In this document: in pieces, positions 204 to 62,877 of the stretch
Layout: the number at the start of each line of letters is the position of its first letter
Numbering within the stretch: the stretch's first letter is position 1
Origin: Azolla caroliniana
Lineage: Eukaryota; Plantae; Polypodiophyta
DNA length: 64,000 nt
Assembly: GCA_043228905.1 (NCBI GenBank)
Contig: JBHGNT010000002.1
Location: 13,082,001-13,146,000, forward strand
Direction: 5' to 3'
Made by a program: the position numbers and the translations under genes
Notes under the pieces: model-generated
Told to the model about the DNA's origin: nothing
Seen by the model: the letters and a program-made list of their open reading frames with translations, nothing else
Database searches by the model: none

Positions 204-2480
204 TTAATGTTTCTCAGTTTTATTATACAATGTTGCATAGATATTGCTCATACATACATATGATGCAGTGTGACATTCATTTAATTGGATAATGTGTTTG
301 AACACGAGACTCCCAAGCTCCACATTTCCCCATTTATGGCAAGCACTTAACAAAGGAACCCAAATCAAGATATTATCGTCCGATGTGGCCACATTAGTGA
401 TCAATGTGAATGCTATATCCACTTGGCCAGATCGTCCAAAAAGATCAACCATACTGACATGATGTTGAATCGAAGGTATAATACCGTAAATTTTCATCAT
501 CGACTTGAAATATGTCTGTCCCTCATCAAGTAAACCAGTGTGGCTACAGACAGTCAACAAAAGGGAGAATGTTACAATGTCCGGCATCACACCCTGTCCT
601 ATCATTCTATTGCATAAGTTCATAACAGTCTCATATTTGCCCAATTGGGCATATCCAGTCATTAATGCATTCCACGAATCTACACTCTTGGCCAGGACCC
701 GATCGAACACTTGATGTGCACCTATGGCCTCACCACATTTCATATACATATCCACCAAAGCGTTGGCTACTATAGCCTCTTTGTCCAACAACCCTTGTGT
801 CAGGATTTCTGTGTGTGCTTCTTTCCCTTTATGAATAGATCCAATATCCCCACAAGCCTTCGCGATAGCAACAAAAGTGATGGCATTTGCTGGGATGCCT
901 TCGAGTTGCATTTGTTTCAAACACTGAAAGGCTTCCTCCATATGTCCATGCCGGACATATGCGGAGATCAAGGCTGTCCATGTGACTACATTCTCGACGG
1001 ATCTATGCTGTCCAAATAAATTTCGTACTTTTGTGAGTGCACCATGTTTCCCGAACATATCCATCAATGCAGTACTAATCATAATGTTTCCCATGAGAGA
1101 TTCATCATGCTCGATCTCAGTATATAATTTGTCACATTGAGATGTAGTTCCCATGATGCATCCACAGGCCTTCAAAACCGAAAGAAACGTAATTCTATCT
1201 GGAGAAAGGCCCTCATTTTGCATTTGTGAAAAGCAATGCAAAGCTTCTTCACCAAACCCATGTTCGGCATATCCAGTTATCAAGGCATTCCATACAACCA
1301 CATCCCGAACAAAAAGCTTGTTAAATACTTCTTTTGCTTTCACAAGTGCTCCGCATTTGGCATACATATCAACTAAAGCAGCCCCAAGCAAGACGTTTTT
1401 CTCAAGTAATCCTTCCATTATAACCTCCTTATGTATCGATTCGCCTTTGCAGATGTCCCTAACATGGCCACAAGCTTTTAAGATGCTGAGTGATGTGACT
1501 TCATTTGCTGAATGTCCATGCTTTTGCATTTCGTTGAAAGAATTGAACGCTTCCTTGAAACGCCTATGTTGAATATACCCACTGATCAGTGCATTCCAAG
1601 AAGCTGTGTCCTTCACCCGAAGCTCATCAAAAACCCTCTGAGATCTGCCAAGCATCCCATTTTTGGCGTACATATCCACCAATGCATAGCCAACGACAAT
1701 ATCTTTTTCAATCCATTTCTCAATGAAAATCGAAGCATGAAAGACTAGCCCCTTGTAATTCTCCTCTATGCTTCCACACGCTTTCAGTACACAAAGAAGT
1801 GTGATGGCATCAGGGAAGAGGCCCTCCGCTTGCATCTGGAAGAAGCACTGTAGCGCCTCTTCAGCATAGAAATGCTCAGAGTATGCATAAATGAGAGAAT
1901 TCCAGGAGATTGAGTCGGGGAAGTTGATCCTATCGAACGTATCTCGGGCATCGGAAAGTTGGCCAGCTTTGGCATACATATCAACCAATGCATTACAAAC
2001 AAGGAGGTTCTGCCGCTCCATATAACAACAAAACATAAGGAGGTTGGCATGAATTTCTCGACCTTTGAAGATTTGTCTCAAGTTACGACAAGTTTTCAGG
2101 ATACAAACGAAAGTGACATGATCAGGACAGAGGCAGCCCTCAGAGAGCATGTGTTGGAAACAGTTTAGGGCTTGGTCAGGCCGACCATGCCCGACATATG
2201 CACTGATAAGGGCATTCCAAGAGACCACATCCTGAACAAGAATATCTTCAAAGGTTTCTCGAGCTTTGGAAAGACAACCACATTTAGCATACATTGTGAT
2301 TAAGCTATTCCCAACAAAAGGGTCTCTTTGGTTCAGAAGAACACCACCATCCTGCTTGAGGATGCGAGCATGGATCCTAATACCTTCTTTCAGCTTCTTC
2401 TGTTTACCACAGTCCTTTACTAATTCTACAACTGTCCATCTTGTTGGCTTCTTATTTGCAACACTAACATTTGAGCTCAT
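204..2480 (-). CDS. PLS-class pentatricopeptide repeat protein with E domain and no DYW (putative organellar RNA-editing specificity factor)
   Basis: Uninterrupted 758-aa ORF with repeating P-L-S triplets (NSLITMYAKCG / VVSWNALISAY / PDHVTFVCILK), then S2 (HHVSMVDLFGRSG) and E-like motifs (IWVPLLSACHKWGNVELG...YVCMSNIYA). It stops before any DYW domain. Confidence 0.93.
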   Translation of the reverse strand: MSSNVSVANKKPTRWTVVELVKDCGKQKKLKEGIRIHARILKQDGGVLLNQRDPFVGNSLITMYAKCGCLSKARETFEDILVQDVVSWNALISAYVGHGRPDQALNCFQHMLSEGCLCPDHVTFVCILKTCRNLRQIFKGREIHANLLMFCCYMERQNLLVCNALVDMYAKAGQLSDARDTFDRINFPDSISWNSLIYAYSEHFYAEEALQCFFQMQAEGLFPDAITLLCVLKACGSIEENYKGLVFHASIFIEKWIEKDIVVGYALVDMYAKNGMLGRSQRVFDELRVKDTASWNALISGYIQHRRFKEAFNSFNEMQKHGHSANEVTSLSILKACGHVRDICKGESIHKEVIMEGLLEKNVLLGAALVDMYAKCGALVKAKEVFNKLFVRDVVVWNALITGYAEHGFGEEALHCFSQMQNEGLSPDRITFLSVLKACGCIMGTTSQCDKLYTEIEHDESLMGNIMISTALMDMFGKHGALTKVRNLFGQHRSVENVVTWTALISAYVRHGHMEEAFQCLKQMQLEGIPANAITFVAIAKACGDIGSIHKGKEAHTEILTQGLLDKEAIVANALVDMYMKCGEAIGAHQVFDRVLAKSVDSWNALMTGYAQLGKYETVMNLCNRMIGQGVMPDIVTFSLLLTVCSHTGLLDEGQTYFKSMMKIYGIIPSIQHHVSMVDLFGRSGQVDIAFTLITNVATSDDNILIWVPLLSACHKWGNVELGSLVFKHIIQLNECHTASYVCMSNIYATLYNKTEKH

Positions 2481-2734
2481 GATGTGTTGGTTGATCGGAG
2501 GAGATTAGCATGCAGGGGATTGGGCATGTGCTACCTTCCCTGCCTTATCTTTCTCTGTGTAACATTTTCTTTCACAGGCAGAGTTTTTTTGAAGTCAACT
2601 CCTACTCCTCATCGGTCTTAAGACCAACCAACCTTACTCCCATCACATCACATCTATTTCTTCTCCTCTTCTTCCTGCTACTACTCTAATGTAAGAAAGA
2701 AACCTCAATCGTTTACATTTACTCTGTGCTCTAT

Positions 2735-16307: not shown

Positions 16308-19109
16308 TCACTCCGGCATGGGGTGTCTTTCCAGCCCGATCCTCTTTCGGCATGCGTCCAGCTTGTCGGATGTCAGCACTTTGGTCAGCATATCTGACCC
16401 GTTCTCGGCCGTGTGAATCTTCGCTAGTGCGAACTCCTGGTCATCTACCCTTTCCCGGATCCAGTGATACCTCCGCTGGATATGCTTCATCCGAGAATGG
16501 TAGGCCGCATTCTTAGCAAGGTGGATGGCACTTTGACTGTCGCAGTAGAGTCGGTATTCCTCTTGTCGGATACCGAGCTCTCCGATGAAGTCCTTCATCC
16601 TTAATATTTCCTTGCCGGCTTCTACAGCCGCCATGTACTCCGCCTCTGTGGTTGATAATGCAACCGTCTTCTGCAGCCTCGACTGCCATGAAACAGCTCC
16701 CCCTGCATATGTCATCACATACCCGGATGTAGACCGGCTGGTATCCACATCAGCCGACATGTCCGAATCGGTGAAACCGTCCAGTTGAGGTTTCCCGGAG
16801 CCGAATCGGAGACACATATTTGAAGTGCCCTTCAAATACCGGAGTATCCACTTGACCGCATTCCAATGCTCCTTGCCGGGATTGCTCATAAACCAGCTCA
16901 CCACTCCGACTGCGTATCCAATGTCCGGTTGGGTACAAACCATTGCGTACATCAAGCTCCCGACGGCAGAGGCATATGGGATCTTCATCATATCTGCCTT
17001 CTCTCCTTTTGTCTTCGGGCTTTGCTTGCCGGACAACTTGCAGTTTGCCGGAAGTGTCGATCCGACCGATTTTGCATCTGACATGTTGAACCGGTGAAGC
17101 ACCTTTGTCACATACTTCTCCTGTGACAGCCATAGTTGCTTCACTGACCGGTCCCGAATGATGTGCATCCCCAACATTTGTCTTGCCGGACCCAGGTCTT
17201 TCATTGAGAAGGTCCGGTTGAGAGCCTTCTTCAGCATCCGAATTTTGCCTTTGTCTCGTCCGACGATCAACATGTCATCCACGTACAGGAGGAGTATCAG
17301 GAAGTCCCCTCCTTCGAACTTCTTCACAAACACGCAGTGATCGGCCTGCGTCTTGTGGTACCCTTGATCGGTCATGAAGGAGTCAAACTTCCGGTACCAT
17401 TGCCGGGGAGCCTGCTTCAGTCCGTACAGGCTCTTCTTCAACCGGCATACCAGGTGCTCCTTCCCTTTCTCCACAAATCCTTCCGGTTGCTGCATGTAGA
17501 TCTCCTCTTCGAGGTCGCCGTGAAGGAATGCCATCTTCACGTCCAGCTGCTCTACCTCAAGATCCATGCTTGCTGCTATACTCAGCACCGTCCGGATGGA
17601 GGTCATCTTTACTACCGGGGCGAATATTTCGTCGAAGTCCACGCCCTTCTTCTGCTGGAACCCCTTCACCACGATCCTGGCTTTGTATCTCGGGGGGTTG
17701 CCGGCATCTCCCGGTTTCAACTTGAATACCCACTTGTTTCGGAGTGCCCGCTTTCCTTTCGGCAGCTCCACCAATTCGTACGTATGGTTCTCATGCAGGG
17801 AATCCATCTCATCCTGCATGGCACTTAACCATTTTCGGCTGTGGGTGTCAACCTTCGCTTCTTCGAAGCTTTCCGGCTCCCCCTCATCGGTTAGCAGGAC
17901 ATGCTCTGCATCCGGAAATCTCCGGGGCGCCCTTCTCTCTCTCAGAGGATATCTACGTCTTCGGGCTTCGGTAATCGGTTCCTCCATTTGCTCTTCATCC
18001 GAATCTGATTCGGGGTCTTGACCGGTTCCGGTCTCAGCTTCCTCTACTTCTTCTTCTGCCGGTTCGGTATCCTCACCGTAACCGGCTGGTTCTTCGAGTG
18101 CTAACCGGTCTCTTGCCGGTTGGGTCTGCTCATTGTAGAGTCTATCCTTACTGGTCGACTCGGAGTTCACTATCTTCTTCTCCGACTCCCAGTCGGCGAG
18201 CGTCTTGTCCTCCATGAAGATAATATCTCGACTCCGGAATACCTTCTTGTCGATCGGGTCCCACACTCGGTAGCCGAACTCATCGTCACCGTAACCGAGG
18301 AATATGCATGGCCGGGTCTTTGGATCTAGCTTTCCTCTCCGGTCCTGTGCTACATGCACGTACGCGAGACACCCGAACACCCTCAGATGCCGGTAGGACA
18401 CTTCCTTACCGGTCCATACTCTCTGTGGCGTGTCTCCGTCCAAGGGTACTGAGGGTGATTTGTTTATCACATATGTCGTCGTCGACAGTGCCTCAGCCCA
18501 AAACTTCTTGGGTAGTTTTGCATGCGCTAGCATACTCCGGACCCTCTCCATTATGGTCCGGTTCATCCTCTCGGCCAGTCCGTTTAGCTCCAGCGTCTTT
18601 GGCACGGTAAATTCGAGCCGGATTCCCTTCGAGCGGCAGTACTCCTCGAACTGCCCCCGGTACTCACCTCCGTTATCTGCTCGAACCGCCTTCAGCTTCC
18701 GGCCGGTTTCTCTTTCCACTCTCGCGTGGAGCTCTTTGAAGACGGATAACACCTGATCCTTTGTCTTCAGCGGTGTGGCCCACAGCTTCCGGCTGTGGTC
18801 ATCTATGAACGTCACGAAGTACTGCGCTCCGGCATGTGACTTCGTGTCTACTTGACAAACATCCGTATGCACCAACTCCAGTGGTGCATTACGTCTCATC
18901 GGTGGCCTTGGTCGGAAGGAGGTCCGGTTCTGCTTACCGGCCAGACAATCAGTGCACTTCTCTAAATGCACGTTCTTCACTGGGATGAGGTTGTCGTCTG
19001 CAAGCCTCTTCATCCCCTTCTCACTCATGTGACATAGCCTCTTGTGCCACAGCTCACCGGCAGTGTCGGAAGCCACGTTCACTTCTTCCGGACATAACCG
19101 GGTATTCAT
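16308..19109 (-). CDS. Copia D pol (GAG-pre-integrase, integrase, RT, RNase H); reading frame intact
   Basis: 933-aa ORF with LWHKRLCH...CTDC, D,D35E, YVDDML and FTDSD motifs. The frame continues with 22794-23641 (IVARAR|KVNT) when N1 is removed. Confidence 0.92.
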   Translation of the reverse strand: MNTRLCPEEVNVASDTAGELWHKRLCHMSEKGMKRLADDNLIPVKNVHLEKCTDCLAGKQNRTSFRPRPPMRRNAPLELVHTDVCQVDTKSHAGAQYFVTFIDDHSRKLWATPLKTKDQVLSVFKELHARVERETGRKLKAVRADNGGEYRGQFEEYCRSKGIRLEFTVPKTLELNGLAERMNRTIMERVRSMLAHAKLPKKFWAEALSTTTYVINKSPSVPLDGDTPQRVWTGKEVSYRHLRVFGCLAYVHVAQDRRGKLDPKTRPCIFLGYGDDEFGYRVWDPIDKKVFRSRDIIFMEDKTLADWESEKKIVNSESTSKDRLYNEQTQPARDRLALEEPAGYGEDTEPAEEEVEEAETGTGQDPESDSDEEQMEEPITEARRRRYPLRERRAPRRFPDAEHVLLTDEGEPESFEEAKVDTHSRKWLSAMQDEMDSLHENHTYELVELPKGKRALRNKWVFKLKPGDAGNPPRYKARIVVKGFQQKKGVDFDEIFAPVVKMTSIRTVLSIAASMDLEVEQLDVKMAFLHGDLEEEIYMQQPEGFVEKGKEHLVCRLKKSLYGLKQAPRQWYRKFDSFMTDQGYHKTQADHCVFVKKFEGGDFLILLLYVDDMLIVGRDKGKIRMLKKALNRTFSMKDLGPARQMLGMHIIRDRSVKQLWLSQEKYVTKVLHRFNMSDAKSVGSTLPANCKLSGKQSPKTKGEKADMMKIPYASAVGSLMYAMVCTQPDIGYAVGVVSWFMSNPGKEHWNAVKWILRYLKGTSNMCLRFGSGKPQLDGFTDSDMSADVDTSRSTSGYVMTYAGGAVSWQSRLQKTVALSTTEAEYMAAVEAGKEILRMKDFIGELGIRQEEYRLYCDSQSAIHLAKNAAYHSRMKHIQRRYHWIRERVDDQEFALAKIHTAENGSDMLTKVLTSDKLDACRKRIGLERHPMPE

Positions 19110-19239
19110 CAGGTACAGTGTGTTTACCTTCCGGTGTCGTAGTGTATTTCGTACACTACGTGAAAAAGTAAAAATAATATAACCGATTTAATTACATATA
19201 AATAAATAAAATAATATATCAAGATATTTATCACGTGCA

Positions 19240-19308
19240 TAGGGCAAGATTCGAACCTTGTACCTCCACGTAACCAAACCTCAACTTTACCATTATGCTA
19301 CCTTATCT
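19240..19308 (-). ncRNA. tRNA-like Pol III cassette in N-family LTR (also ~22109-22177 and ~59805-59873)
   Basis: The minus strand reads GATAAGG TAGCATAATGG (box A) ...GGAGGTACAA GGTTCGAATC (box B) TTGCCCTA, with a 32-nt A-B spacer and T-runs ~30 nt downstream. Confidence 0.6.
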
Positions 19309-19862
19309 TTAGTGTTTTATAAATAGATTTAATAACTATAAGTGCTTTATTTGCGCCTACCTTTATTAAAAGGTAAATCATGTATTTTTAGAGTGCGTGA
19401 ATATTTTATAGGAAAACGCAAGCAACTAAAAAGTGACTCATGCACATCTAGCGTGCATGAGCACTATATTTAGCAAATAAAAGCAAGGATTAGAAAAGCA
19501 TCACATGCACATTTAGTGTGCATGAACATATTAGAAAAAAAGCATGTAGCTATGCTTAGTCTCTCCCATCACTATATAAGGATGGGGAGCACATTGTAGT
19601 TTTTGTTGATTATTTTTCTATAATGATCAATCAATCTAAAATATTCGTGGGATTCACGAATTTGCTAAAATAATTTTCTCTTACTACCTAAATATTGACT
19701 AAATATACTAAACTCGTGGGATTCACGAGATTTTTATCTTATAACTCTTTATACCTATTCTTTACTAGCCTTATTTGTATTTTTCTTTTCTCCTAGTCCA
19801 AAACCCCGGTGGTTCCCACCTGACTCACGCAAACGATCCGGAGCCGAAAGGCACGACACAGT

Positions 19863-19880
19863 TGGTGAACCCGATGTGAA
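19863..19880 (+). promoter_or_regulatory. Primer-binding site complementary to tRNA-Trp (also 60429-60446)
   Basis: TGGTGAACCCGATGTGAA versus the complement of the plant tRNA-Trp(CCA) 3' end as I recall it (TGGTGAACCCGACGTGAA): 17/18, and the mismatch allows G:U. Confidence 0.8.
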
Positions 19881-19896
19881 GGCGGGTGGCAAGGAG

Positions 19897-20931
19897 ATGG
19901 AGAATCAACAAGATGCAATGAGCATAACGATGATTATGATGTTCGAGCGGATGCTACAAGAACAACGAGTGATGTCGGAGATCACGGGGGCAGTAAAGCG
20001 GCTCGTGCGACGAAACGGGGAATTCAACGGTAAGGGTGTGTCACGCTACCTACGTGAATATAAGGCGGAGATGATGCAATATCGGATACCGGAAGGATTG
20101 CAAGTGATATCCTTTAGTCGGGTGGCCTCGGACGAACTACAAGAGAGAATCCACAAGATACAACAACAAAACTCGACATGGGAGTCCTTTGAAGAAGCTT
20201 TACGGGAGACATATGACTATGAGAGATGGACGGGACGAGATCGACGAGAATTCGACGAATGGGTGGCGTCGGAGAAGACTCACCGAAGTGCAACGCAAGC
20301 GTTCCTAGAGTTCGAGCATCGTTTTGCTCGACTCTCGGAGCGGGAACGAAGATTGGTGGGAGAAGATAAAGTCTTAATGTTCGTAAGATCGATCGATCGG
20401 AAAGAAAGGATGGACATTGGGATCGAACTCGAAGATGATGACGGTGCGAATGGTCTTACCGAAGATTGGGCCGAAGTCCAAAGGGTATGCCGGAGACATG
20501 ATGAGAGGAAGATGAGAATCTTGTCAACGACATGGCCAATGAAGGATGGTCGATTGAAGACAAACGATGGAGCCGATATGAAGGCCGAAATACAACATGA
20601 TGGTGTGACGGAAGAGGGTGTAAAACAAGCTACCCTCTTGTCTTGCGAAAGAACGACGGCGAAGGATAAGGCCGATAACCCAAGTGTAGAAGAAGATTTC
20701 GGAATACAAGTGTCCGAAACATCGGGTGAAAAAGGGGTAAGCATAATTGATGTTTGCATAATTGATGCAGTGAAAGAGAGCAAGGAGGACTTGATTGAGG
20801 AGGTCGCCACGAAAGATGACATCGAATCGAAGGTGGCTGGCTATGGACGAATCAACGACGGATGGCCATATCGAGACTTCCCCACCACTGATTCTAGAGA
20901 CTCCGGCGGTTGCGTTCGAAAGGCAACGTGA
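19897..20931 (+). CDS. Gag-like (capsid) protein of N1
   Basis: First ATG at 19897. GEFNGKGVSRYLREY...TWESFEEALRETY resembles Gypsy gag capsid. A near-identical ORF starts at 60463. Confidence 0.65.
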   Translation: MENQQDAMSITMIMMFERMLQEQRVMSEITGAVKRLVRRNGEFNGKGVSRYLREYKAEMMQYRIPEGLQVISFSRVASDELQERIHKIQQQNSTWESFEEALRETYDYERWTGRDRREFDEWVASEKTHRSATQAFLEFEHRFARLSERERRLVGEDKVLMFVRSIDRKERMDIGIELEDDDGANGLTEDWAEVQRVCRRHDERKMRILSTTWPMKDGRLKTNDGADMKAEIQHDGVTEEGVKQATLLSCERTTAKDKADNPSVEEDFGIQVSETSGEKGVSIIDVCIIDAVKESKEDLIEEVATKDDIESKVAGYGRINDGWPYRDFPTTDSRDSGGCVRKAT

Positions 20932-21300
20932 GACCGAAGAGACGGAAGGTGGCGGAGAGAAAACAAAGGTCGAAGTCGATGCATACGACGGAGAGATAGC
21001 CGAGAATATGGCTATGGGTGAAACAATGGAGGATGATAATACCGAGGATTCCTACCCACTAATCCTAGAGACTCCGGCGGTTGCGATCGAAAGGCAACGT
21101 GAGACCGAAGAGACGGAAGGTGGCGGAGAGAAATCAAAGGTTGAAGCTGATGCGTATGACGGAGAGACAACCGAGAATATGGCTATGGGTGAAACAACGG
21201 AGGATGATAATACCGAGGATTCCTACCCACTAATTCTAGAGACTTCGGCGGTTGTGTCCGAGAACCAACGTGAAACCGGAGAGACGGGAGGTGGCAGCAA
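20885..21300 (+). repeat. 171-bp tandem repeat (~2.5 copies) encoding a 57-aa acidic unit
   Basis: PLILETPAVA.ERQRETEETEGGGEK.KVE.DAYDGE..ENMAMGET.EDDNTEDSY is repeated in ORF 20795-21454. Confidence 0.9.
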
Positions 21301-22793
21301 GAAAGGTAAAGTCGGAAGCCGGTTCGGATGGAAGGTGATCCGGACGGGATTCCGATCCGAAAGAAAGCCGAACCGGGCGAATGAGGATTCGGCCGAAAGA
21401 CGACCCAAAAGAAAGCCGACCCGAAAAGGGGTCGACTCGGTCAAAACCGATTGACTGAGTCTGACTTGGCCGAACGCGAATATGGATGGAGGCCGACCTA
21501 GCCGAAAGCCGATCGGACGAGACCGATCCAAAAAGAAGCTAATCCGACTCAACCGGAGGTTGGACCGGTCGAGGCTGGTGAAAACGAGGAAAAGAAAGCC
21601 AACCGAAACCGAAACCGATAGATCGAAACCGGGGCGGAAGGAGACCGACTCAATCGAAACCGAACAACCGATTCCGATTCGGCCGAATATGAATCCGATC
21701 GGACGCCGATCAAACCGAAAGTCGATCGGACGAGAGCGATCCGGAAAAAAGTCAAGGTTGATGAAGACAACAAAGAGGCCAGTAAAAGACACTACCACGA
21801 ATGACAAGGGCCAAGAATATGACGAGAGAGAACAAAGAATATGGTGGATCGGATGGCGACAATGGTTCGGGTGGAAAGAATGGGTCTACTCAAAATGGAG
21901 AGACAAAGTTAACATAGCGGGACAAACGGAGGATGAAGGGGAGACAACGAGCATTGGCAACTTCGGCACATACCGGAGGATGTGCGGGTTCGGAGGGGGC
22001 GAGTGTCGTAGTGTATTTCGTACACTACGTGAAAAAGTAAAAATAATATAACCGATTTAATTACATATAAATAAATAAAATAATATATCAAGATATTTAT
22101 CACGTGCATAGGGCAAGATTCGAACCTTGTACCTCCACGTAGCCAAACCTCAACTTTACCATTATGCTACCTTATCTTTAGTGTTCTATAAATAGATTTA
22201 ATAACTATAAGTGCTTTATTTGCGCCTACCTTTATTAAAAGGTAAATCATGTATTTTTAGAGTGCGTGAATATTTTATAGGAAAACGCAAGCAACTAAAA
22301 AGTGACTCATGCACATCTAGCGTGCATGAGCACTATATTTAGCAAATAAAAGCAAGGATTAGAAAAGCATCACATGCACATTTAGTGTGCATGAACATAT
22401 GAGAAAAAGCATGTAGCTATGCTTAGTCTCTCCCATCACTACATAAGGATGGGGAGCACAATGTAATAGGTGTGTGAAATATTTGGAAATTGGATATATT
22501 TCCGAAAACACCAACCGATTAATATAATCGTGGGATTCACGAAAATAATATAATCTATACTTGTGGGATTCACAAGTTTCTTATATCTTTCTTTCAATCT
22601 AAATACATATTCTTATCTAAATATTGATTAATCGATTACAATACACTCGTGGGATTCACGAGATTCTTATCTTATAACTCTTTATACCTATTCTTTACTA
22701 GCCTTATTTGTATTCTTCTTTCTCCTAGTCCAAAACCTCGGCGGTTCCCACCCGACTCACGCAACGATCCGGAGCCGAAAGGCACGACACCGG

Positions 22794-23641
22794 GCCCGAG
22801 CCACAATCAGGCTCCCTTTGCTGAACTTCATGACACCGTTCTGGATGCTACCCGTGTAGCCTTCATCATCTAGCCGACCGGCTGATATCAGGTTCAGACG
22901 AACTTCCGGAACGTGTCGGACATCTTTCAACAGCAGTTTGCATCCGGTTGGTGTTGTCAGCCACACGTCTCCTATGCCGACAATTCGACATGTTCCTTCA
23001 TTCCCCATCCGGACACAGCCGTGATCACCGGCTGAGTAGGATGAGAAGCATTTCCGGTCCGGGGTAAGGTGGAACGACGCTCCGGAGTTTACCACCCAGG
23101 TCATCTCATCGCCGACATGGTTTATCTCACTCTCATCGGTGATGAGCATCAACTCCTCTTCACTTGCCGCAATTGCCGTCGTTCCCTTCCGGTCCGGCCC
23201 CCTCCGGTCTTTACCGTTCCGGTCTGTACCGTTTTGGTTCGGGGTTTGCTTCGAATCGGTACTGTCGGTTTCCTTGTCTTTACGGAAATGCCGACAGTTC
23301 TTTTGGAAGTGTCCCGGCTTGCCGCAATAGAAGCAAGTAGGCCTCCCCCTTGACTTTGATCGTGTCCCCGACTTCTCCCGGTTCTGGGGACTACGGTTTC
23401 TTTGTCTTCCGCGTTCCGATTCGGTAAGGAGCGCTTTGGAGTCGGAGCTCGTATCTTTGTCTTTCCGACGAGCCTCCTCATCTAGCAAGCTCGACTTTCC
23501 TCTTGCTAGGGATAGCCGTTTTCCTTCCGGCCCGGCGTTGCCCAAAGTAACAACCAACGTCTCCCAGCTATCCGGGAGGGAACCGAGCAGGAGTAGCGCT
23601 AGGACCTCATCGGCAAGAGGTACTTCCAATGACGTTGACTT
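22794..23641 (-). pseudogene. Copia D gag C-terminus, zinc knuckle and protease
   Basis: Motifs LLLGSLPDSWETLV, CFYCGKPGHFQKNC and WVVNSGASFHL (catalytic D appears as N). Confidence 0.88.
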
Positions 23642-24205
23642 CCACAAGCTGCAAACTGTCACTATGCAGAAATATACAACAGTGAGATCACCGAGGCAAC
23701 GACCTCGTGCTCTCAGATCTTCGCCACAGGCGGCGGTTATAACAGAGGCAACGACCTCGTCTCTCTCTCTCTCTCTCTCTCTCCGTCTCTCTATACAGTT
23801 ACGCGCTCTGATTTCTTCTTGCACACAACAAGAAAGGAAAAATAACATGAATGACAACAACTAACTAAAAGTTTGCCCTAAGTCATATTTATACTAATAT
23901 GACTTTTCGGCTATTTACAAAAATGTAGCCTTGATGGGCTTCATCCGGCTCTCCGCAGTCGGGCCTACACCATCCGACTCTCCGCAGTCGGGGTACTCCT
24001 CATCCGGCTTTCCGCAGTCGGGCCTTCACCATTCGACTCTCCGCAGTCGGGTACTCCTCATCCGGTTCATACCGGGCCTACACCATCCGACTCTCCGAAG
24101 TCGGGTTCTCCCCATCCGGTTCATACCGTTTCAACACTGTTCGTTTGTTCGTCGGCACTGTTCTTCTCCCTTCCCATCCGGAGGGACCTGTCTACCAACA
24201 CTTCG

Positions 24206-25247: not shown

Positions 25248-26380
25248 GCCTGGAGGAACAAGAGCTGTGAGCCCGAGGATCCCGAAGAGCCTCAAGTTGA
25301 GCTTGAGGGGAGTGTTGAGAGACAAGCTCAACATCAGCCGGATCGGCTGAAGAAGCCGAGGACCGGATCGGTTGGGACCGATTGGTTAGGCCGAGTGCAT
25401 AAACTGAGAGGCCGTTAGGAAAGATATTCCGAGAGGAATATATTTGGGAGTTAGTGTAGGAGCTCTTGATGAGCATTGAAGTACTATCAGTACTTCGGTC
25501 AGTCCTTCTAGGACTTGTATAAAAGTGCTCACTGAGCACTTCTTATGTACAGACTTGAGTATTATTATTGAATATAGTTTTTTGTGTCTACTCTCTCTTT
25601 GTCTCTCCCGCGTATACCGTGTAAGCCCAAGCTCTCCATTGAACCTGAGTTTCCTTCCTCTGTTCTGTCTTCATACCTGCTTCCGCACGCTACTTTCTAC
25701 ACAATATTGCCCTAGTTATATTTATACTTATATAACTTTGGGGCTATTTACAAATATGACCTCAATGGTCACGTTTGAACATATTTACTAATATGTTCCT
25801 ATTTATTGGTTCATACTAGATCCGACCGAACTCCTTCCACAATCATCCGATACGGTATTCCTATATCTTCTAGACCCATCTGGTCCGGTTCATTGCTTCG
25901 TGTTACTGGCCGGCAAAGGAGTCTAGAGTGTGAAACGAAGGAGTTATTTAGGAAGGGTTGTAAGTGAGCTATTAGTGTGAACGGACGGACCGGAATCGGT
26001 ATGCCGTTCCGGATCCGGACCGATCCCGAATAGGTGCGGATGGCACCGTTTTGTACTACAAACCGGAAACCTATTTAAATGCCTGGATACAATGTAATGA
26101 GCAGCGGATAATTAATGAAGCTTAGTGTTTTTATCTCTCTGTGTTAATTGCCGTTCTGCATTCATTGTTATATCTTACGCGTGTGATTATTAAGGACGAT
26201 CTTGCTAAGTAACCTAATTAAGTCAGATTAATCGTTGAGCCTACTCCTCTTGCTGTAACACCCCTTTGGTGAAGTGTCTTCCATAGACACCCTGTGTTAG
26301 GCCATTGTCCGGCCCTAAGAGTTAACACAGTTTTTGGCGACCACGATTCCTGTTTTTGCAGCGAACGACGGCATGAATGG

Positions 26381-32981: not shown

Positions 32982-33272
32982 TATCATGATATGGCAAGAC
33001 TCGAACCCATGACCTTATGCTACATGGGTCGAGCTCTTGACCATTAAAATATACATTGTAATACGTAGAATATTATTTTCATTTATGTTTTATTATAGAA
33101 AATTGATGTATATTCCAGATTTCTCTAGAACATTCTAGAAACTTCAGGAGTATTCCTTAGAACACTATAAAAGGAGGCACGAGGCATTATTTTGAACCAA
33201 ATCGGTTCAACACCAGTCTTAAGCCTCCTAGCTACTACTGTACATTCTCTTCACATAATATATATCTTTTCT

Positions 33273-36300: not shown

Positions 36301-38649
36301 AGTTTGACGCCGCCGAAATCAACTACGAAATTCATGATAAAGAGCTATTGGCTATAATGGACTCTTTTATGCAATGGAGGCATTTTCTAGAGGGATCTTC
36401 TCATCAAGTCACTGTATTCAGTGACCACAAAAACCTCGCCTATTTTCAAGACGCTCGTGTGTTAAATCGAATTCAAGCTCGGTGGGCCCATTTTCTCACG
36501 CGTTTCGACTTCAAGATTACATATCGACCTGGGAAACATCAAGGGAAAGCAGATGCATTATCACGACGTTCGTACCTAGCACCGCGTCCCGGCGAGCCAA
36601 CTTTCGATAACCAAAAGCAAGTAATCTTGGGACCGGCACAATTGCAAGCAACACAAGTCTTTGGCATGCCCATGGATTCCCACGTTATCGATATAATACA
36701 TGTGGACCTGAAGACAGATGCTTTCGCCCAAGCTATACTAGCACAAATTGATCCCTCTCGAGCGTCGTGTTCACAGCCGCAACCACCAGGTACGGACTAT
36801 CGGCAATTCAAATACCATGATGGATTACACTTCTTTAAAGAACTTTTGTATGTTCCTAATGGTTCTTCCCGCCTTCAAGTAGTACAAAACTGTCATGACA
36901 CATATACAGCTGGGCATTTTGGTAGTACTAAAACATTAGATTTAGTACAACGATCATTCTAGTGGCCCCATATGCGACAATTTGTCGAAGATTTTGTTCG
37001 GACTTGTGACACATGCTGCAGAGCGAAAATGCCAAGGCATCATCCATATGGTTCATTAGAACCATTACCAATTCCAAGCAAGCCGTGGCAATCCATTGCT
37101 CTAGACTTCATCACAGATCTTCCAGTCTCTAAGGGGTTCAATGCGATTCTAACAGTGGTAGATCGATATACGAAGATGGCTCATTTTTTGCCATGTACTA
37201 AGGAAATCTCCAGTGAAGACACCGCCGAAATTGTCATGCGTGAAGTATGTCGGCATCATGGACTTCCCGATAGTATCGTCAGCGACCGTGGACCCCAGTT
37301 CGTGTCAAAATTCTGGAAGCACCTTTTTAAAATGCTCAAGGTCACTTGTAACCTCTCCTCTGGCTACCACCCACAAACCAACGGCCAAGCCGAACGGACA
37401 AATCAAACGCTGGAGCAGTACCTGCAGTGCTTTCTCAGCTATCATCAGGATGACTGGGCAGATATTCTCCACTTCGCCGAATTTGCCTATAATAACTCTA
37501 TCCATGCATCGACTAAAGTTATGCCATTTTATGCTGATACGGGATGTTAGCCCTGGTGGTGTGTACTTCAAACACTGGAGCAGTACCTGCGGTGCTTTCT
37601 CAGCTATCATCAGGATGACTGGGCAAATATTCTCCACTTCGCCGAATTTGCCTATAATAACTCTATCCATGCATCGACTAAAGTTACGCCATTTTATGCT
37701 TATACGGGATGTCAGCCCCGGTGGTGTGTACTTGAAACCCCAGAGGTGTCCACAAATCCTTGCGCGGAGGATCGTTTGGAGCGGTTACGCAAGATACAAG
37801 CAGATTTATCTACTCATCTCCAACAAGCTCAGCAAACACACAAGGTTTATGTGGATCGTCATCGACTCCCATCCAGTTTTAACATTGGAGATCGGGTATG
37901 GCTACTCCGACGACACATCAAGACTACTCGCCCATGTGAGAAGTTGGATTATCGGCGATTAGGTCCTTTCTGTATCATAGGAAAGATTAATGATGTCGCT
38001 TTTCGTCTCGATCTACCTCCACAACTTCGGATACATCCGGTGTTTCATAGTTCTCTCCTTTAACCCTATCAAGAGAGCACCATCCCAGGATGTATTACAC
38101 AGCCTCCACCCCCGATTGAGCTTGAAGATGGACCTGAGTACGAGGTTACCGCCATCCTTGATTCCAAGATTGTTCGCAACAAGCTCTACTATCTAGTCGA
38201 TTGGCTAGGATATAGTCCTAGTGAGCGTACTTGGGAACCGATAGAGAATGTCACCAATGCTCGTGCACTTCTTGAAGACTTCCATCATCAATATCCAGAC
38301 AAACCGGGTCCTCAATCCAAAACGACTCGTTACACTCTTCGTTTTAAAGGGAGGATAGCGTCATGATATGGCAAGACTCAAACCCATGACCTTATGCTAC
38401 ATGGGTTGAGCTCTTGACCATTAGACTATACATTGTAATATGTAGAATATTATTTTCATTTATGTTTTATTATAGAAAATTGATGTATATTCCAGATTTC
38501 TCTAGAACATTCTAGAAACTTTAGGAGTATTCCTTAGAACACTATAAAAGGAGGCACGAGGCATTATTTCGAACCAAATCGGTTCAACGCCAGTCTTAAG
38601 CCTCCTAGCTACTACTGTACATTCTCTTCACATAATATATATCTTTTCT

Positions 38650-38797: not shown

Positions 38798-41700
38798 TCA
38801 CCGCCATACGGGACGAGCTGGCTGAAGACTTCCAAGTCCTGGCGGATGAACAGCTGGTGCTGGTCCGGCAACTCATAGCTCAGCTAGACGATGATAGGTT
38901 GGACGCTCAAATCTAGTTTGAGAGCTACGAGCAGTCCCGGGTTCGGGAAGAAAAAGCACGGGAAGCGGCAACGGTTAACCTTAGTGATGAGGAACCGTCG
39001 CCGGCCGAGGGCTAGGCCAGAACCAGTCAACAGGAGACCACTACGATGGAGGGAGCAACGACGGAAACGCCGGTGTCAGAGCAACAAACGGAGGATTAGC
39101 CACAGCAGCCACCAAAGGACCAGTCGCAGCAGCAATCAACGAAGCAGCAACAACAACAACAACAACAACAACAACAACCAATTCCAGATGAACCATTGGA
39201 GACTCTTGAACAAAGCATTCTGGATATTTTGGACGAAGAATAGCAAGGGTGGGATGGTGGATTCGACGTACAAGGTACTGTCCCACGGGCGTGCCATGTG
39301 TTACTGGCCGGCAAAGGAGTCCAGAGTGTGAAACGAAGGAGTTATTTAGGAAGGGTTGTAAGTGAGCTATTAGTGTGGACAGACGGACCGGAATCGGTAT
39401 GCCGTTCCGGATCCGGACCGATCCCGAACAGGTGCGGATGGCACCATTTTGTACTACAAACCGGAAACCTATTTAAAGGCCCGGATACAATGTAATGAGC
39501 AGCGGATAATTAATGAAGCTTAGTGTTTTTATCTCTCTGTGTTAATTGTCGTTCTGCATTCATTGTTATATCTTACGCGTGTGATTATTAAGGAAGATCT
39601 TGCTAAGTAACCTAATTAAGTCGGATTAATCGTTGAGCCTACTCCCCTTGCCGTAACACCCCTTTGGTGAAGTGTCTTCCGTAGACACCCTGTGTTAGGC
39701 CATTGTCCGGCCCTAAGAGTTAACACTTCGTCCCATCTTCCGGCTCATCTGGTTCTCATCCGGAGGGACTTGTTTCCAAACAAAATCCCCCTTCACTGGA
39801 GTCCGATCTGTCTTCGGCATGTGTCCAGTTTGTCGGCTAACAACATCTTGGTCAGCATGTCCGACCCGTTCTCCTCCGTATGGATCTTCGTCTGCAAGAA
39901 CTCTTTATCTTCTACCTTCTCCTGGAGCCAGTGGTATCTCCTCTGGATGTGTTTGGTCCGAGAGTGGTACTTATCGTTCTTCGCGAGGTGAATGACACTC
40001 TGATTGTCGCAATAGAGCCAGAATTCCTCCTGCTGGATCCCAAGCTCTCCGATGAAGTCCTTCATCCAAATTATCTCTTTGTCGGCTTGCACGGCTGCCA
40101 TATACTCTGATTTCGTTGTTGACAATGCAATGGACTTCTACAGCCTCGACTGTCACAATACAGCTGCCCTTGCATAAGTCATATGACATATCCGGATGTA
40201 GAACGGTTGGTATCCGCATCAACCGACGATTCTGAATCCGTGAATCCTTCAAGTTGGGGTTTCCTGAGCCGAATCAGAGACACATGCTCAAGGTGCCTTT
40301 CAGGTACACGAGTATCCACTTGATCGCGGCCCAATGTTCTCTTCTCGGATGGCTCTGAACCGGCTCACCACCCCGACTATATATCCAATATCTAGCCTAG
40401 TACACACCATTGCATACATTAAGCTTCCGACGGCAAAGGCATATGGTATCTTCATCATCCCCGACTTCTCTATCTTGGTCTTCGGGCTTTGTTTCCTGAA
40501 AACCTTGCAATTTTCCGAGAGTATTGATCCAACCGGCTTCGCCTCCGAAATGTTGAACCTTTGAAGCACCTTTGTCATGTACTTCTCCTGTGACAACCAC
40601 AACAATTTTTTCGTCCGGTTCCGGATTATATGCATCCCCAATATCTGTCTCCCTGGACCAAGATCTTTCATTGAGAAGGACCAGCTCAAGGCCTTCTTCA
40701 GATTCCCGATTTTGGTTCGGTCCGGTCCGACGATTACCATGTTGTCCAGATACAGTGGGAGTATTAGGAAGTCGCCTCCGTTGAATTTCTTCAAAAACAC
40801 GCAGTGGTCGGCCTGCGTCTTGTGGTATCCTTAGTCGGTCATGAAGGAATCGAACTTTCGGTACCATTGTCGGGGAGCTTGCTTTAGTCCGTATAAGCTC
40901 TTCTTCAATTGGCACACTAGTTGCTCCTTCCCTTTCTTGACAAATCCCTCCGGTTGTTGCATGTAGATCTCTTCTTCAAGGTCACCGTGCAGGAACGCCG
41001 TATTGACGTCTAGTTGTTCGACCTCGAGGTCCATGCTTGTTGCTATGCTCAACACCATCCGGATGGCTGTCATCTTTACTACCAAGGCAAAGATCTCGTC
41101 AAAATACACTCCCTTCTTCTGTTGAAACCCTTTCACCATGATCCGTGCTTTGTACCTAGGTGGATTTCCGACATCTCCTGGTTTTAGCTTGTACACCCAC
41201 TTGTTCCGGAGTGCTCTCTTTCCTTTCGGCTACTCCATCAATTCATAGGTGTGTTTCTCATGTAGAGAATCCATCTTGTCCTGCAAGGAACTTAACCACT
41301 TGCGGCTGTAGGTGTCTTTGTTTGTTTCTTCGAAGCTTTTCAGCTCCCCCTCGTTGGTCAATAAGACATGCTCTGCATTCAGAAATATCTGGGGGGCCTT
41401 TCTCTCTCTAAGATGATATCCCCGTCCTTGGTTTCCAACCACTGGTTCCTCCATCTAATCTTCATTTGAATCTAATTTGAGATCTTGTCCGGTTCCGGTG
41501 TGCGATTCTTCTTCTTTGGTTGATTTGGTTCTTTGTCCGAATCCGGCTGGTTCTTCGAGTGTTGTCCAGTGTCCGGCCGGATGGGTCCTTGCATCTTTCG
41601 ACTGATCTCTATCGGTCGTCCCGGAGTCCGCTACCTTCTTCTCTGACTCCTAGTCGGCAATGGTCTTGTCTTCCATGAAGACTATGTCTCGACCAAGTCC

Positions 41701-53835: not shown

Positions 53836-53905
53836 AATTCATAACCTAATGGTAAAGTCTCGACCCGTGTAACAAAAGGTTATGGGTTCGAGTCTAGTTA
53901 TGACA
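53836..53905 (+). ncRNA. tRNA-like Pol III cassette at the U3 edge of G-family LTRs, antisense to the element
   Basis: Box A taacctaatgg at 53842-53852 (TAGTCTAATGG in the G1 3' LTR) and box B ggttcgagtc at 53885-53894, with a 32-nt spacer. G1/G2 copies read AAGGTCATGGGTTCGAGTC, like a tRNA variable loop + T arm. Confidence 0.6.
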
Positions 53906-58925: not shown

Positions 58926-59220
58926 TGATGCGAAAGATATATGTATTATATGAAGGAAGATATACAACAGTAGTTAGAAGGCTTAAGACTGGCGTTGAAC
59001 CGATTTGGTTCGAACTAATGCCTTGCGCCTCCTTTTATAGTGTCTTCAGGAATACTCCTGAAGTTTCTAGAATGTTCCAGAGAAATCTGGAATATACATC
59101 AATTTCCCAATAAAACCTAAATGAAAATAATATCCTTCAAATTACAATTCATAACCTAATGGTAAAGTCTCGACCCGTGTAACAAAAGGTTATGGGTTCG
59201 TGTCTAGTTATGACAGTATA

Positions 59221-61691
59221 GTCCCCCGATTTTCAATCCGGAGAGAACAGCTCGACGGTATGCCGACTGAAAAAGTCCCTCTATGGACTAAAACAAGCCT
59301 CTGCACGTGGAACACGAAGATCACGTAGCGCCTGCATCACTGGGTTTCCGATGTCCAAATCAGACTCTTCATTGTTCGTCCGGTAAGGTTGACATGGACC
59401 GGTTAGTATTTTACTTTATGTTTATGATTTAGTCATCGTCATCACTGACCTAGATGAAATTGGCCAAGTAAAGTCCCAGCTCGTGGCATCATTCTACATG
59501 AAGGAACTAGGGAACCTTCATTACTTCCTAGGGATCGAAGGGATCTGCACCCCCGAAGGCATACTGATCAGCCAACGACATTACGTGTTGCATATGCTCT
59601 TCAAGTTTGAGATGGCAGACTGTAAGTCTATCTCAACTCCTTTGGACAGAAATGTCAAGCTTCGCCGAGATTCGGGAAAGGTGTGCGACCCGACACGGTG
59701 TCGTAGTGTATTTCGTACACTACGTGAAAAAGTAAAAATAATATAACTGATTTAATTACATATAAATAAGTACAATAAGAATATCAAGATATTTATCACG
59801 TGCATAGGGCAAGATTCGAACCTTGTACCTCCACGTAGCCAAATCTCAGCTTTACCATTATGCTACCTTATCTTTAGTGTTCTATAAATAGATTTAATAA
59901 CTATAAGTGCTTTATTTGCGCCTACCTTTATTAAAAGGTAAATCATGTATTTTTAGAGTGCGTGAATATTTTATAGAAAAAACGCAAGCGACTAAAAAGT
60001 GACTCATGCACATCTAGCGTGCATGAGCACTATATTTAGCAAATAAAAGCAAGGATTAGAAAAGCATCACATGCACATTTAGTGTGCATGAACATATTAG
60101 AAAAAAAGCATGTAGCTATGCTTAGTCTCTCCCATCACTATATAAGGATGGGGAGCACATTGTAGTTTTTGTTGATTATTTTTCTATAATGATCAATCAA
60201 TCTAAAATATTCGTGGGATTCACGAATTTGCTAAAATAATTTTCTCTTACTACCTAAATATTGACTAAATATACTAAACTCGTGGGATTCACGAGATTTT
60301 TATCTTATAACTCTTTATACCTATTCTTTACTAGCCTTATTTGTATTTTTCTTTTCTCCTAGTCCAAAACCCCGGTGGTTCCCACCTGACTCACGCAAAC
60401 GATCCGGAGCCGAAAGGCACGACACAGTTGGTGAACCCGATGTGAAGGCGGGTGGCAAGGAGATGGAGAATCAACAAGATGCAATGAGCATAACGATGAT
60501 TATGATGTTCGAGCGGATGCTACAAGAACAACGAGTGATGTCGGAGATCACGGGGGCAGTAAAGCGGCTCGTGCGACGAAACGGGGAATTCAACGGTAAG
60601 GGTGTGTCACGCTACCTACGTGAATATAAGGCGGAGATGATGCAATATCGGATACCGGAAGGATTGCAAGTGATATCCTTTAGTCGGGTGGCCTCGGACG
60701 AACTACAAGAGAGAATCCACAAGATACAACAACAAAACTCGACATGGGAGTCCTTTGAAGAAGCTTTACGGGACGCATATGACTATGAGAGATGGACGGG
60801 ACGAGATCGACGAGAATTCGACGAATGGGTGACGTCGGAGAAGACTCACCGAAGTGCAACGCAAGCGTTCCTAGAGTTCGAGCATCGTTTTGCTCGACTC
60901 TCGGAGCGGGAACGAAGATTGGTGGGAGGAGATAAAGTCTTAATGTTCGTAAGATCGATCGATCGAAAAGAAAGGATGGACATTGGGATCGAACTCGAAG
61001 ATGATGATGGTGCAAATGGTCTTACCGAAGATTGGGCCGAAGTCCAAAGGGTATGCCGGAGACATGATGAGAGGAAGATGAGAATCTTGTCAACGACATG
61101 GCCGATGAAGGATGGTCGATTGAAGACAAACGATCCGGAGCCGAAAGGCACGACAACGGTTCCGAAAGATTGTCCACAGCCTAATTTATTTGATGATGAC
61201 TCGGCCAGATCCCAGTTACCCAGTCGGCCTAATCAGTCAATTTATGTTGTAGCCCACGACCGAACACCTTCAGTGCACGCAAAGGATATTGCGCTATGTC
61301 CGTGGCACTAAGGATGGGGTGTTGCTATATCGGGTAGGAGTAGCCGAGTAGCTAGTCCATTATATGGATGCCAATTGGGCCGAAAATGCCGGCAATTGCA
61401 GATCAACATCTGGATATGCATCTTCATTGGGAAGTGCAGTGATCACATGGAGCAGTATAAAACAGTCAATAGTGGTGTATAATAGACTGGTTGCGTAAAC
61501 TGGGTACGCAACGAGAGGCCATAGTGGTGTATAATAGAGGTTTGGAATAGAGTTTTCTGTGTTCTGCTCTCTCTGTCTCTCCCGCGTACGTTGTGCTGAT
61601 TAAGCTTTCCATTAAACCTTCCTTGTCTCTTTGTCTTTTGTTTGTTGTTACCCGGTTGTATCTGTTAAGCTTCCGCACGTATTCTTTTACA
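59221..61691 (+). mobile_element. Copia F remnant (C-related): RT/RNase H pieces 59221-59698 and 61160-~61465, partial 3' LTR ending 61691
   Basis: VCRLKKSLYGLKQA and LHYFLGIE motifs; CDPTR|FRKIV across N2. LTR end gcttccgcacgtattcttttaca resembles the Copia C LTR end. Confidence 0.8.
59699..61155 (+). mobile_element. N2: deleted N-family copy (5' LTR 59699-60424, PBS, gag 5' part, last ~27 bp of the 3' LTR); 4-bp TSD ACGG
   Basis: acgg at 59695-59698 and 61156-61159. The deletion joins internal aaacgat(ggagccga) to LTR aacgat(ccggagccga). Confidence 0.92.
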
Positions 61692-62871
61692 TAAACCTTT
61701 TATACTCATGCAAATGCTTTTGGTAATTCTCTTTATCCTTTACTACATCCAAAACCATAAGTCACTTTCCAGCTTCACGACATTCTTTATCAAACCATTT
61801 TTCCCTAAGTTTCTTGGTGCATTTCCAAGATGTGCGGTTGGTCAAAAAACATTTTTTTGTACAAGAGAGAATGACTTTCTTGAAAGCTTCCCATTTGCAT
61901 TCTAGCGTGGCACCATGTTGTATCTTTGTCACTTGTAACATATCCTCAACCATCTTGGAATACATGGGCGCTCGCTTAAGGTTCATGCTCAAGTGCAGTT
62001 GTTTATTATCTTCCATAGCCTTCTCACAATCAAACTGATGCATACATTTGAGATCAATACATAAAGGCCTATGATCGGGTTCTAGTGTCCATTCACCAAG
62101 TGAGAATTTATGTATACGATCCAAAATACCTTCGGAAAGTAACACATAGTCAATCACACTATTTCCGTTGTGTTTTCTACATGTAAAACCATTAGTGTTG
62201 GGCCATAAGGAAATACCATTTGCAATAAGCAATCCGGTACTATTGCACATTTGTAGGAGTAACTTCCCAAATGGGTCTGGATCGTTTTCATCGCTAGAAG
62301 AGCAGCTATACATTTGCATATTCTCTTGCATCCTTGAGATATATGGCATGAAAGATTCTTGTGAATCAAGTTGGAAATTTCTTTTACGAGCATTCATGTC
62401 ACCAAAGACAATAACTTCCCCTTTGGATTTGAAATAAGCAATATCATCTTCTAGATTGGCAAAAGGTTGACCTTTATCCAAACAAGCATAAAAGTTAGAA
62501 TCTTGATGAGGAATGTAACATCCAACTACAAAAGTGAGCAAATCATTAGGTGTTTCTATTTTGAGCCATATGTAGCATTTATGTTCATCATTTTTTATGA
62601 TTGACACATATTTCTCTATTTCCTTCTTAATCAAACATGCCACCCCTCCTTGTCCTCTTCTTTTTCTTGGATTTTTCTTCCATATCAAAGAGTGTACATT
62701 ATAGTTTCCTAAACCTTGAATCCTTTGAGTATCATGCTCCCATGTTTCAACAAGAAGTGTGATATCCGAGTCATCGGTGAACTCCTCTATGCCAAATCCC
62801 GCATTCCATGGGTATCCATTGCAATTCCAAAAGCATAGTCGTAAAAGGCGTGGGTTAGTCTCATAGATCAC
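61692..62871 (-). pseudogene. LINE ORF2 N-terminus (AP endonuclease)
   Basis: Motifs WNCNG, LVETW, GQGGVACL, CYIPH, GDMNA, SVIDYV and PDHRPL. Confidence 0.9.
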
Positions 62872-62877
62872 GTGTCC

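Follow-up and report, generated by a model that had tools for sequence, protein, structure and literature searches.

A 70-mer in the LTR of element N carries tRNA-type A and B boxes in antisense, and comparison across families indicates that it is likely a TFIIIC-bound cassette fixed in many moss-type Phygy and Tcn1 LTR families. Judged by its letters and spacing, the cassette is very probably a promoter of the tRNA/SINE type, and we think it probable that the elements which carry it keep it under selection. The feature is real and more widespread than the original prediction had it, and the comparisons make a good case for cassette function. As to how it works, we give an even chance to a DNA-bound chromatin element rather than action through an RNA.

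The cassette in elements N and G3

The window, the whole 64-kb stretch of DNA that was analysed, is a nest of LTR retrotransposons. Element N occupies 19135-22789 within the region 19131-22793, is flanked by target-site duplications (TSDs) and is itself nested in a Ty1/copia element, whose pol lies at 16308-19187 (minus strand) and whose gag lies at 22757-23860. Read on the plus strand, N consists of a 724-bp 5' LTR of the form TG...CA (19135-19858), a Gag-like frame open from stop to stop (19699-20931), a polypurine tract (21992-22003) and a 786-bp 3' LTR (22004-22789), between 4-bp CCGG duplications (19131-19134 and 22790-22793) of the NCGN kind that is a Phygy hallmark. The sequence TGGTGAACCCGA after the LTR (19863-19879) is, we take it, a primer-binding site (PBS) of tRNA-Trp type, and a TATA-like motif at 19572-19581 may mark the Pol II promoter of the LTR. 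A second, truncated copy of N begins with a 5' LTR at 59699-60424, again on the plus strand. The two LTRs of the first N are ~99% alike in U3, but one block of R/U5 sets them apart (724 vs 786 bp), pointing to template switching between subfamilies. N also occurs in tandem, as arrays with three or four LTRs spaced at 2.7-2.85 kb. The window further holds a PPR protein frame (204-2504, minus strand), a LINE-type endonuclease frame (61762-62877, minus strand) and a gypsy element of another lineage (25901-26327 and 39299-39725), which has no cassette, is missing the purine tract before its 3' LTR and has a tRNA 3'-end-like sequence there.

N is 3.66 kb long with its Gag-like frame, and a Pfam search found neither reverse transcriptase nor integrase in it; its sisters of ~6.5-8.2 kb, which share ~81% of U3 and 42-50% of Gag with it, carry pol. 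The TSD is 4 bp long and CG-centred (NCGN) in 24/24 two-LTR N elements. For the Phygy clade, described from Physcomitrella, the portion of Neumann et al. (2019, PMC6317226) used here gives a 4-bp NCGN TSD (100%) and a tRNA-Trp PBS (81%). Given these criteria and the uniform TSD, we infer that N is a non-autonomous, pol-less Phygy derivative, which shares the TSD and presumably the Trp-type PBS with the published elements but is ~3.7 kb or less and without pol, against their mean of 8.6 kb. The host would on this reading be moss-like. In G3, reverse transcriptase, integrase and a chromodomain were found, and we read it as a Tcn1-type chromovirus; both it and Tcn1, as that portion of the paper describes the clade, are chromodomain-bearing gypsy elements without a tRNA-type PBS. 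The same portion mentions an LTR cassette for neither Phygy nor Tcn1.

The original prediction had read, on the minus strand, an A box, a 32-nt spacer and a B box, intact in all three N LTRs, and the letters bear this out. The A box TAGCATAATGG (19290-19300) and the B box GGTTCGAATC (19248-19257) of the 5' LTR, together spanning 19248-19300, have intact counterparts at 22117-22169 in the 3' LTR and at 59813-59865 in the truncated copy, each on the minus strand and antisense to the element. The cassettes of G3 are also antisense, as had been predicted. In one element, which itself lies on the minus strand, they occupy 53842-53894 (3' LTR) and 59152-59204 (5' LTR) on the plus strand; in another they occupy 32998-33051 (5' LTR) and 38375-38428 (3' LTR) on the minus strand. 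A shared position in the LTR, also predicted, is not found: the cassette takes up LTR nucleotides 114-166 of 724 in N vs a place within the first ~64 of 467 in G3. A TATA-like motif lies downstream of it in both. The 12-mer TAATGGTAAAGT, thought to be common to the two families, occurs in two of the three N LTRs and in one G3 element (53847 and 59157), but the other G3 LTRs read TAATGGTCAAGA or TAATAGTCAAGA.

This geometry bears on the idea that the cassette is the Pol III promoter of the element's genomic RNA, as has been proposed for Helenus and shown for Cassandra. The boxes are of the same tRNA-derived kind and likewise sit in LTRs (PMC10886601, in part), but in N and G3 the cassette faces away from the PBS, whereas it is in sense in Helenus-1_SMo, and the elements are 3-8 kb long, many with pol. 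We regard such a role as extremely improbable.

Scored with a host-tRNA-gene matrix, the N LTR reaches 23.3, vs a maximum of 20.0 over both strands of 500 dinucleotide shuffles, none of which (0/500) attains the N score; six copia and other-gypsy LTRs of the window stay below 12 on both strands with the same matrix. A test for a type 2 Pol III promoter found the A and B consensus at tRNA spacing. The cassette as a tRNA gene was rejected: ARAGORN reports 0 tRNA genes there, Rfam gives no tRNA match, and the stems pair at chance level. The first T4 run, a possible Pol III terminator (19208-19211, minus strand), is met 36 nt past the B box, ~96 nt from the equivalent of tRNA +1, in keeping with the predicted T-run ~30 nt on and span of ~100 nt; it is unconserved between families. 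As for the predicted T-arm hairpin, the CAAG/CTTG pairing is present but encloses an 8-nt loop and lies one base out of tRNA register.

Distribution and ancestry

Across the genome the flanks of the N cassette are separated by 64-70 nt at 678 places, and a search for gaps of 0-30 nt between them found no place. A TSD-flanked SINE inserted sporadically in some N copies only is ruled out by this contrast of 0 empty and 678 full-length sites, and the tRNA/SINE-like module is fixed, as anticipated, with its motifs kept in divergent families. The intact-box pattern, whose flank requirement differs from that of the 678 count, occurs at 549 places. Among 105 LTRs chosen from full-length sites (74 stretches), the cassette is missing from none and has a gap of any kind in three. 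A generic A+B pattern, whose count is inflated by repeats and includes some true tRNA genes, has 6,744 matches genome-wide vs 0 for a reversed control; together with the shuffles this speaks against motif pairs at chance frequency. A dozen spacer types are found among the first 100 of these matches listed, and in 20 fetched stretches all elements that could be oriented are Phygy or Tcn1-type, with the cassette in the LTR and antisense. L115:4981-5033 and L116:5089-5141 hold a further tRNA-like repeat head, whose spacer is different and around which neither an LTR nor a protein was seen.

Cassette-bearing families may have a Gag merely 25-35% identical to that of N and still hold the boxes in exact tRNA register with a 32/33-nt spacer; the averages of this cross-family comparison are lowered by one row, a second match in L004 that falls outside the LTR. 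Among distinct loci selected by their Trp-type PBS, 4/29 have the cassette, all in AT-rich LTRs, and 25/29 are without it, nearly all in GC-richer LTRs. On a Gag tree of 45 rows (7/52 Gag pieces, shorter than 140 aa, were excluded) the cassette label needs five changes, at least three of them forced by well-supported branches; the cassette families make up at least four deep Phygy lineages, with two cassette-less GC-rich clades nested among them. This is most simply read as an old module of Phygy that was lost or replaced twice, and LTR swapping could also produce such a tree. Because at least four deep Gag lineages share the cassette, N would have inherited it from an older Phygy ancestor, and the capture by N itself that was first proposed is not upheld.

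Outside these lineages, 30 Met-PBS loci gave three matches of at least 16 bits (two weak, and one a SINE-like copy 938 nt away), none of which is repeated within a family. An SH3_Tf2-1 search returned mainly a different chromovirus clade, used as a negative set; 30 of its loci also gave three matches, namely one SINE-like copy and two weak ones. In metagenomes, 64 relatives were found through the G3 C-terminus and 58 were scored, six being excluded because the match fell short of the C-terminal part or ended at a contig end. At 59% identity or more, 17/25 score at least 16 bits, 16 of these within 40 nt of the match end, where the LTR starts; this set includes several new spacers and three more cassettes recognisable under the 16-bit cut-off. 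At 58% or less, 1/33 reaches 16 bits, away from any LTR start. A scan of viral contigs with Phygy integrase found nothing.

At three loci (L176, L124:4600-5500 and L125:4600-5600) the Phygy LTRs hold two tandem antisense cassettes; closer to the LTR 3' end they also hold an A/B-like cassette on the sense strand, intact in the first two and partly deleted in L125. The GC-rich Phygy LTRs L144, L145, L155, L160 and L174 have no antisense cassette; near their 3' end, ~108 nt before the PBS, a B-box-like GGTTCGAG stands in sense, accompanied by a poor A box.

Spacers of Phygy and Tcn1 cassettes are 0.27 identical outside positions 43-47, against 0.25 +/- 0.02 when shuffled, and 0.33 identical to tRNAs. 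The N-G3 exchange that had been suggested is rejected, as this identity is about the shuffled level; the two cassettes may be convergent or may go back to an old homology that drift has since erased. The donor search called for in the prediction covered a partial set of host tRNAs (25 types from 161 ARAGORN hits, plus tRNA-Ala), among which none stands out, and a SINE-like head, which ranked first of 17 for one N-family spacer (11/21, p 0.007 uncorrected, 23 spacers tested). The latter match is too weak, and we therefore name no donor for N. The host genes for tRNA-Lys/Asn, Ile and Arg form tandem arrays in which many copies are degenerate (L031, L048-L050, L104).

The SINE-like head belongs to a ~210-bp repeat (L305-L334, e.g. 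L324:1490-1730) with a tRNA-Ala-like 5' start, usually found in (GA)n tracts, and it has on its other strand a further A/B-like cassette, which faces the first; its search pattern has 1,027 matches, and the first 30 listed comprise 26 copies of the repeat and 4 tRNA-Ala genes. Over ~75 nt the head aligns closely with the antisense LTR-start cassette of a second chromovirus family (L335, L336, L338, L339, L347-L350), whose Pol is ~49-54% identical to that of G3. In this family the cassette is in both LTRs of L335, with a core of 16.5/20, and subfamilies retain different lengths of post-head sequence. The alignment shows that heads move, in one direction or the other, between LTRs and the SINE-like repeat, with place and orientation as in G3. 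The cassette is likely tRNA/SINE-derived.

Conservation across families and selection at the B-box CpG

Six LTRs were picked by their 3' end and not by the boxes. Among these, identity is 0.88 in the B box, 0.76 in the A box and 0.93 at positions 43-47, whereas the spacer core has 0.65 and U3 outside these parts has 0.50. The B box ranks in the top 3% of U3 10-mers and the A box is unexceptional (22%). Positions 44-47 are A, G, G and T in 17, 17, 18 and 17 of 18 family representatives; because the box pattern served to pick 14/18 of these, conservation in their box columns is circular, and positions 44-47, which in N are the AGGT at 19262-19265 (minus strand), had no part in the selection. In yeast, TFIIIC WH3 contacts position 47 base-specifically and positions 44-47 influence transcription (10.1101/2024.08.28.610035, in part).

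These motifs could instead now serve as Pol II transcription-factor sites, that is as an enhancer, whether or not they came from a tRNA. They do lie in U3, where further palindromic motifs are conserved too, and the B box is equalled in conservation by 3% of U3 10-mers. However, two motifs at exact tRNA spacing together with positions 44-47 match the TFIIIC footprint, a geometry that a Pol II factor does not need, and we consider an enhancer very unlikely.

Pairing in the cassette stems is 0.39 (acceptor), 0.57 (D), 0.40 (anticodon) and 0.64 (T), in each case about that of cross-family pairings, whereas 15 host tRNAs give 0.85-0.98 (acceptor 0.95, anticodon 0.85); the first T4 is 1 to >40 nt past the B box across families, and several Tcn1 LTRs end ahead of any terminator. 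A conserved tRNA-like RNA, as the prediction had implied, is thus not what families share. Such conservation befits a protein-binding DNA element and not a structured RNA.

The main rival to the chromatin reading is nevertheless a functional short antisense RNA (~96 nt in N), made by Pol III, with a role in regulating the element or in supplying small-RNA pathways. Both boxes are kept at full tRNA spacing, which sites bound by TFIIIC only do not strictly need, the orientation is fixed in three lineages, and N has its T4 within 36 nt of the B box. In addition, simian foamy virus provides a precedent with Pol III miRNA genes in U3 (PMC3993851, in part), and the SINE-like repeat that shares a head with chromovirus LTRs could derive from such a transcript. 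Against this, families have neither a fold nor a spacer sequence in common, terminators are as erratic as described above, and the RNA fold in N itself has a z of only -1.85, equalled by 11/200 shuffles. We hold the RNA explanation to be unlikely.

The N copies also bear on selection. When an LTR retrotransposon makes a new copy, a single parental LTR supplies the U3 of its two LTRs, so that a change common to both LTRs is inherited. The B-box CpG (19251-19252) is the most mutated CpG of the N U3, intact in 15/51 unpaired LTRs vs 32-49 for the ten other U3 CpGs, and this speaks against its being steadily protected in most copies. Of its two transitions, C56T should damage the B box and G57A remains within the consensus, with which host tRNAs agree. 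Among 27 fetched N pairs, inherited G57A outnumbers inherited C56T by 12:3, vs 14:22 in unpaired LTRs, and the other ten CpGs of U3 give 6:10 inherited and 22:46 unpaired (Fisher tests on the G57A/C56T contrasts, 0.03 and 0.013). Genome-wide there are 262 N-type sites with C56T and 320 with G57A, which weakens the case. Among the matches listed, which are the first 100 of each, concordant pairs 1.5-4 kb apart in the common span number 26 for G57A vs 4 for C56T; a freshly examined span gives 15 vs 2 (p 0.002), and distances up to 8.6 kb give 29 vs 8. This biased inheritance, together with the conservation of the motifs, makes the cassette probably a functional module, as first proposed.

The same data bear on a neutral relic, an old SINE head carried along in ancestral LTRs whose conservation reflects shared ancestry and few founders. 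Successful families without the cassette fit this, as does a test of inherited against private changes at 15 critical positions in N, which is not significant (p 0.45). The N copy tree is poorly resolved (47/68 forks open), and founder effects could therefore contribute. The pol-bearing sister of N fits as well, with a weaker A box and with C56T in both LTRs of young copies, namely 4/6 copies hand-picked for a mutated B box; three of these four pairs are at least 99% identical. Since one such round of inheritance is expected even if the change is lethal, the sister pairs weaken the signal of selection without cancelling it. However, the boxes, their spacing and AGGT persist across deep lineages in which spacer and flanks are near random, the hypermutable C56 is intact in the eight deepest-coverage metagenome contigs (L241-L247, L249), and the G57A bias was replicated in the fresh span among the matches listed. 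A relic thus appears quite unlikely to us.

Proposed mechanism and comparison with known systems

In the chromatin reading, TFIIIC would bind the antisense A and B boxes and would set TFIIIB on the side that faces the TATA-like motif, 110-270 bp away. The bound factors could then act as a nucleosome-poor barrier or opener, and where insertion sites are methylated and dense in repeats, the open patch might help the Pol II promoter of the LTR. The antisense orientation would spare that promoter from Pol III firing into it, and any short antisense RNA would be a by-product. Barrier and insulator activity of TFIIIC and tDNAs is established in yeast (PMC4228148, in part), and nesting of Phygy in Tcn1 is reported in P. 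patens (PMC6911290, in part).

Two considerations temper this reading. The cassette-less GC-rich Phygy clades, which are the commoner ones, LTRs with a Met-type PBS and the other chromovirus clade have also multiplied, which weakens it, and a strict roadblock fits badly because the element's own Pol II transcript crosses the 3'-LTR cassette. A search of sequencing runs listed no RNA run as a holder. In three poly(A) runs from a related organism, 46-74 reads fall on the N region, where those over the cassette are all sense and come in from one flank, and G3 has 19-24 reads; such libraries lose a ~100-nt U-tailed RNA, and the reads are therefore silent on Pol III output. A broader proposal is that at least three moss-type gypsy lineages would each have armed their LTRs with an antisense head, using TFIIIC as a portable anti-silencing barrier, with selection removing from the B box a CpG that can be methylated but sparing the consensus, and with LTR cassettes and the SINE-like repeat trading heads. 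This is possible but, in our view, rather doubtful.

If the chromatin reading is true, autonomous plant retrotransposons would bring their own TFIIIC site to stay active in methylated, repeat-dense DNA, and thousands of sites (6,744 pattern matches) would be candidate boundaries or Pol III starts genome-wide. Gene targeting is feasible in mosses. There, a Tcn1-type element, RLG1, is the most expressed element of Physcomitrium patens, according to the portion of PMC7466625 used here, which has no mention of tRNA or polymerase III. In the open literature searched, antisense A/B boxes in moss LTRs or gypsy elements did not turn up, and subscription papers, Repbase entries or bioRxiv supplements may mention the motif.

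The closest likeness is to the Helenus TRIMs (TRIMp3), in which tRNA-derived A and B boxes are fixed in both LTRs, as they are here. According to the part of Kojima (2024, PMC10886601) drawn on, the Helenus boxes are thought to come from a SINE that landed in the LTR, their tRNA product is mostly non-functional, and "not a few" Repbase LTRs contain tRNA-like parts; the sole plant family given for Helenus is from Selaginella, and that text has no mention of moss. Helenus elements are non-coding and 311-1,263 bp long, whereas the cassette elements described here are 3-8 kb with gag or gag-pol, and the boxes of Helenus-1_SMo are in sense and drive the template RNA, whereas those here are antisense and upstream of a TATA-like motif. 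N therefore has boxes in both LTRs in common with Helenus/TRIMp3, but neither the sense orientation nor the miniature (<~1.3 kb), non-coding form. Cassandra TRIMs similarly have the Pol III promoter of a small-RNA gene under selection in plant LTRs; theirs, however, is a 5S-derived type 1 promoter that starts the element RNA, in a non-coding miniature (PMC10886601, in part). The cassette would widen the Helenus and Cassandra idea from a promoter of template RNA to an antisense regulatory module.

Simian foamy virus offers another parallel: it is an autonomous retroelement with a Pol II promoter, and its U3 contains A/B-box Pol III units. Its units have conserved hairpins, terminators and demonstrated RNAs, whereas the cassette has no conserved fold or terminator and is known from its sequence (PMC3993851, in part). 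N belongs neither to Helenus nor to the foamy-virus U3 units. The tDNA and ETC sites at which yeast TFIIIC binds resemble the action proposed for the cassette, in that they influence nearby Pol II promoters and chromatin independently of any product; those sites are host loci, whereas the candidate site described here would be carried by a plant retrotransposon (PMC4228148, in part).
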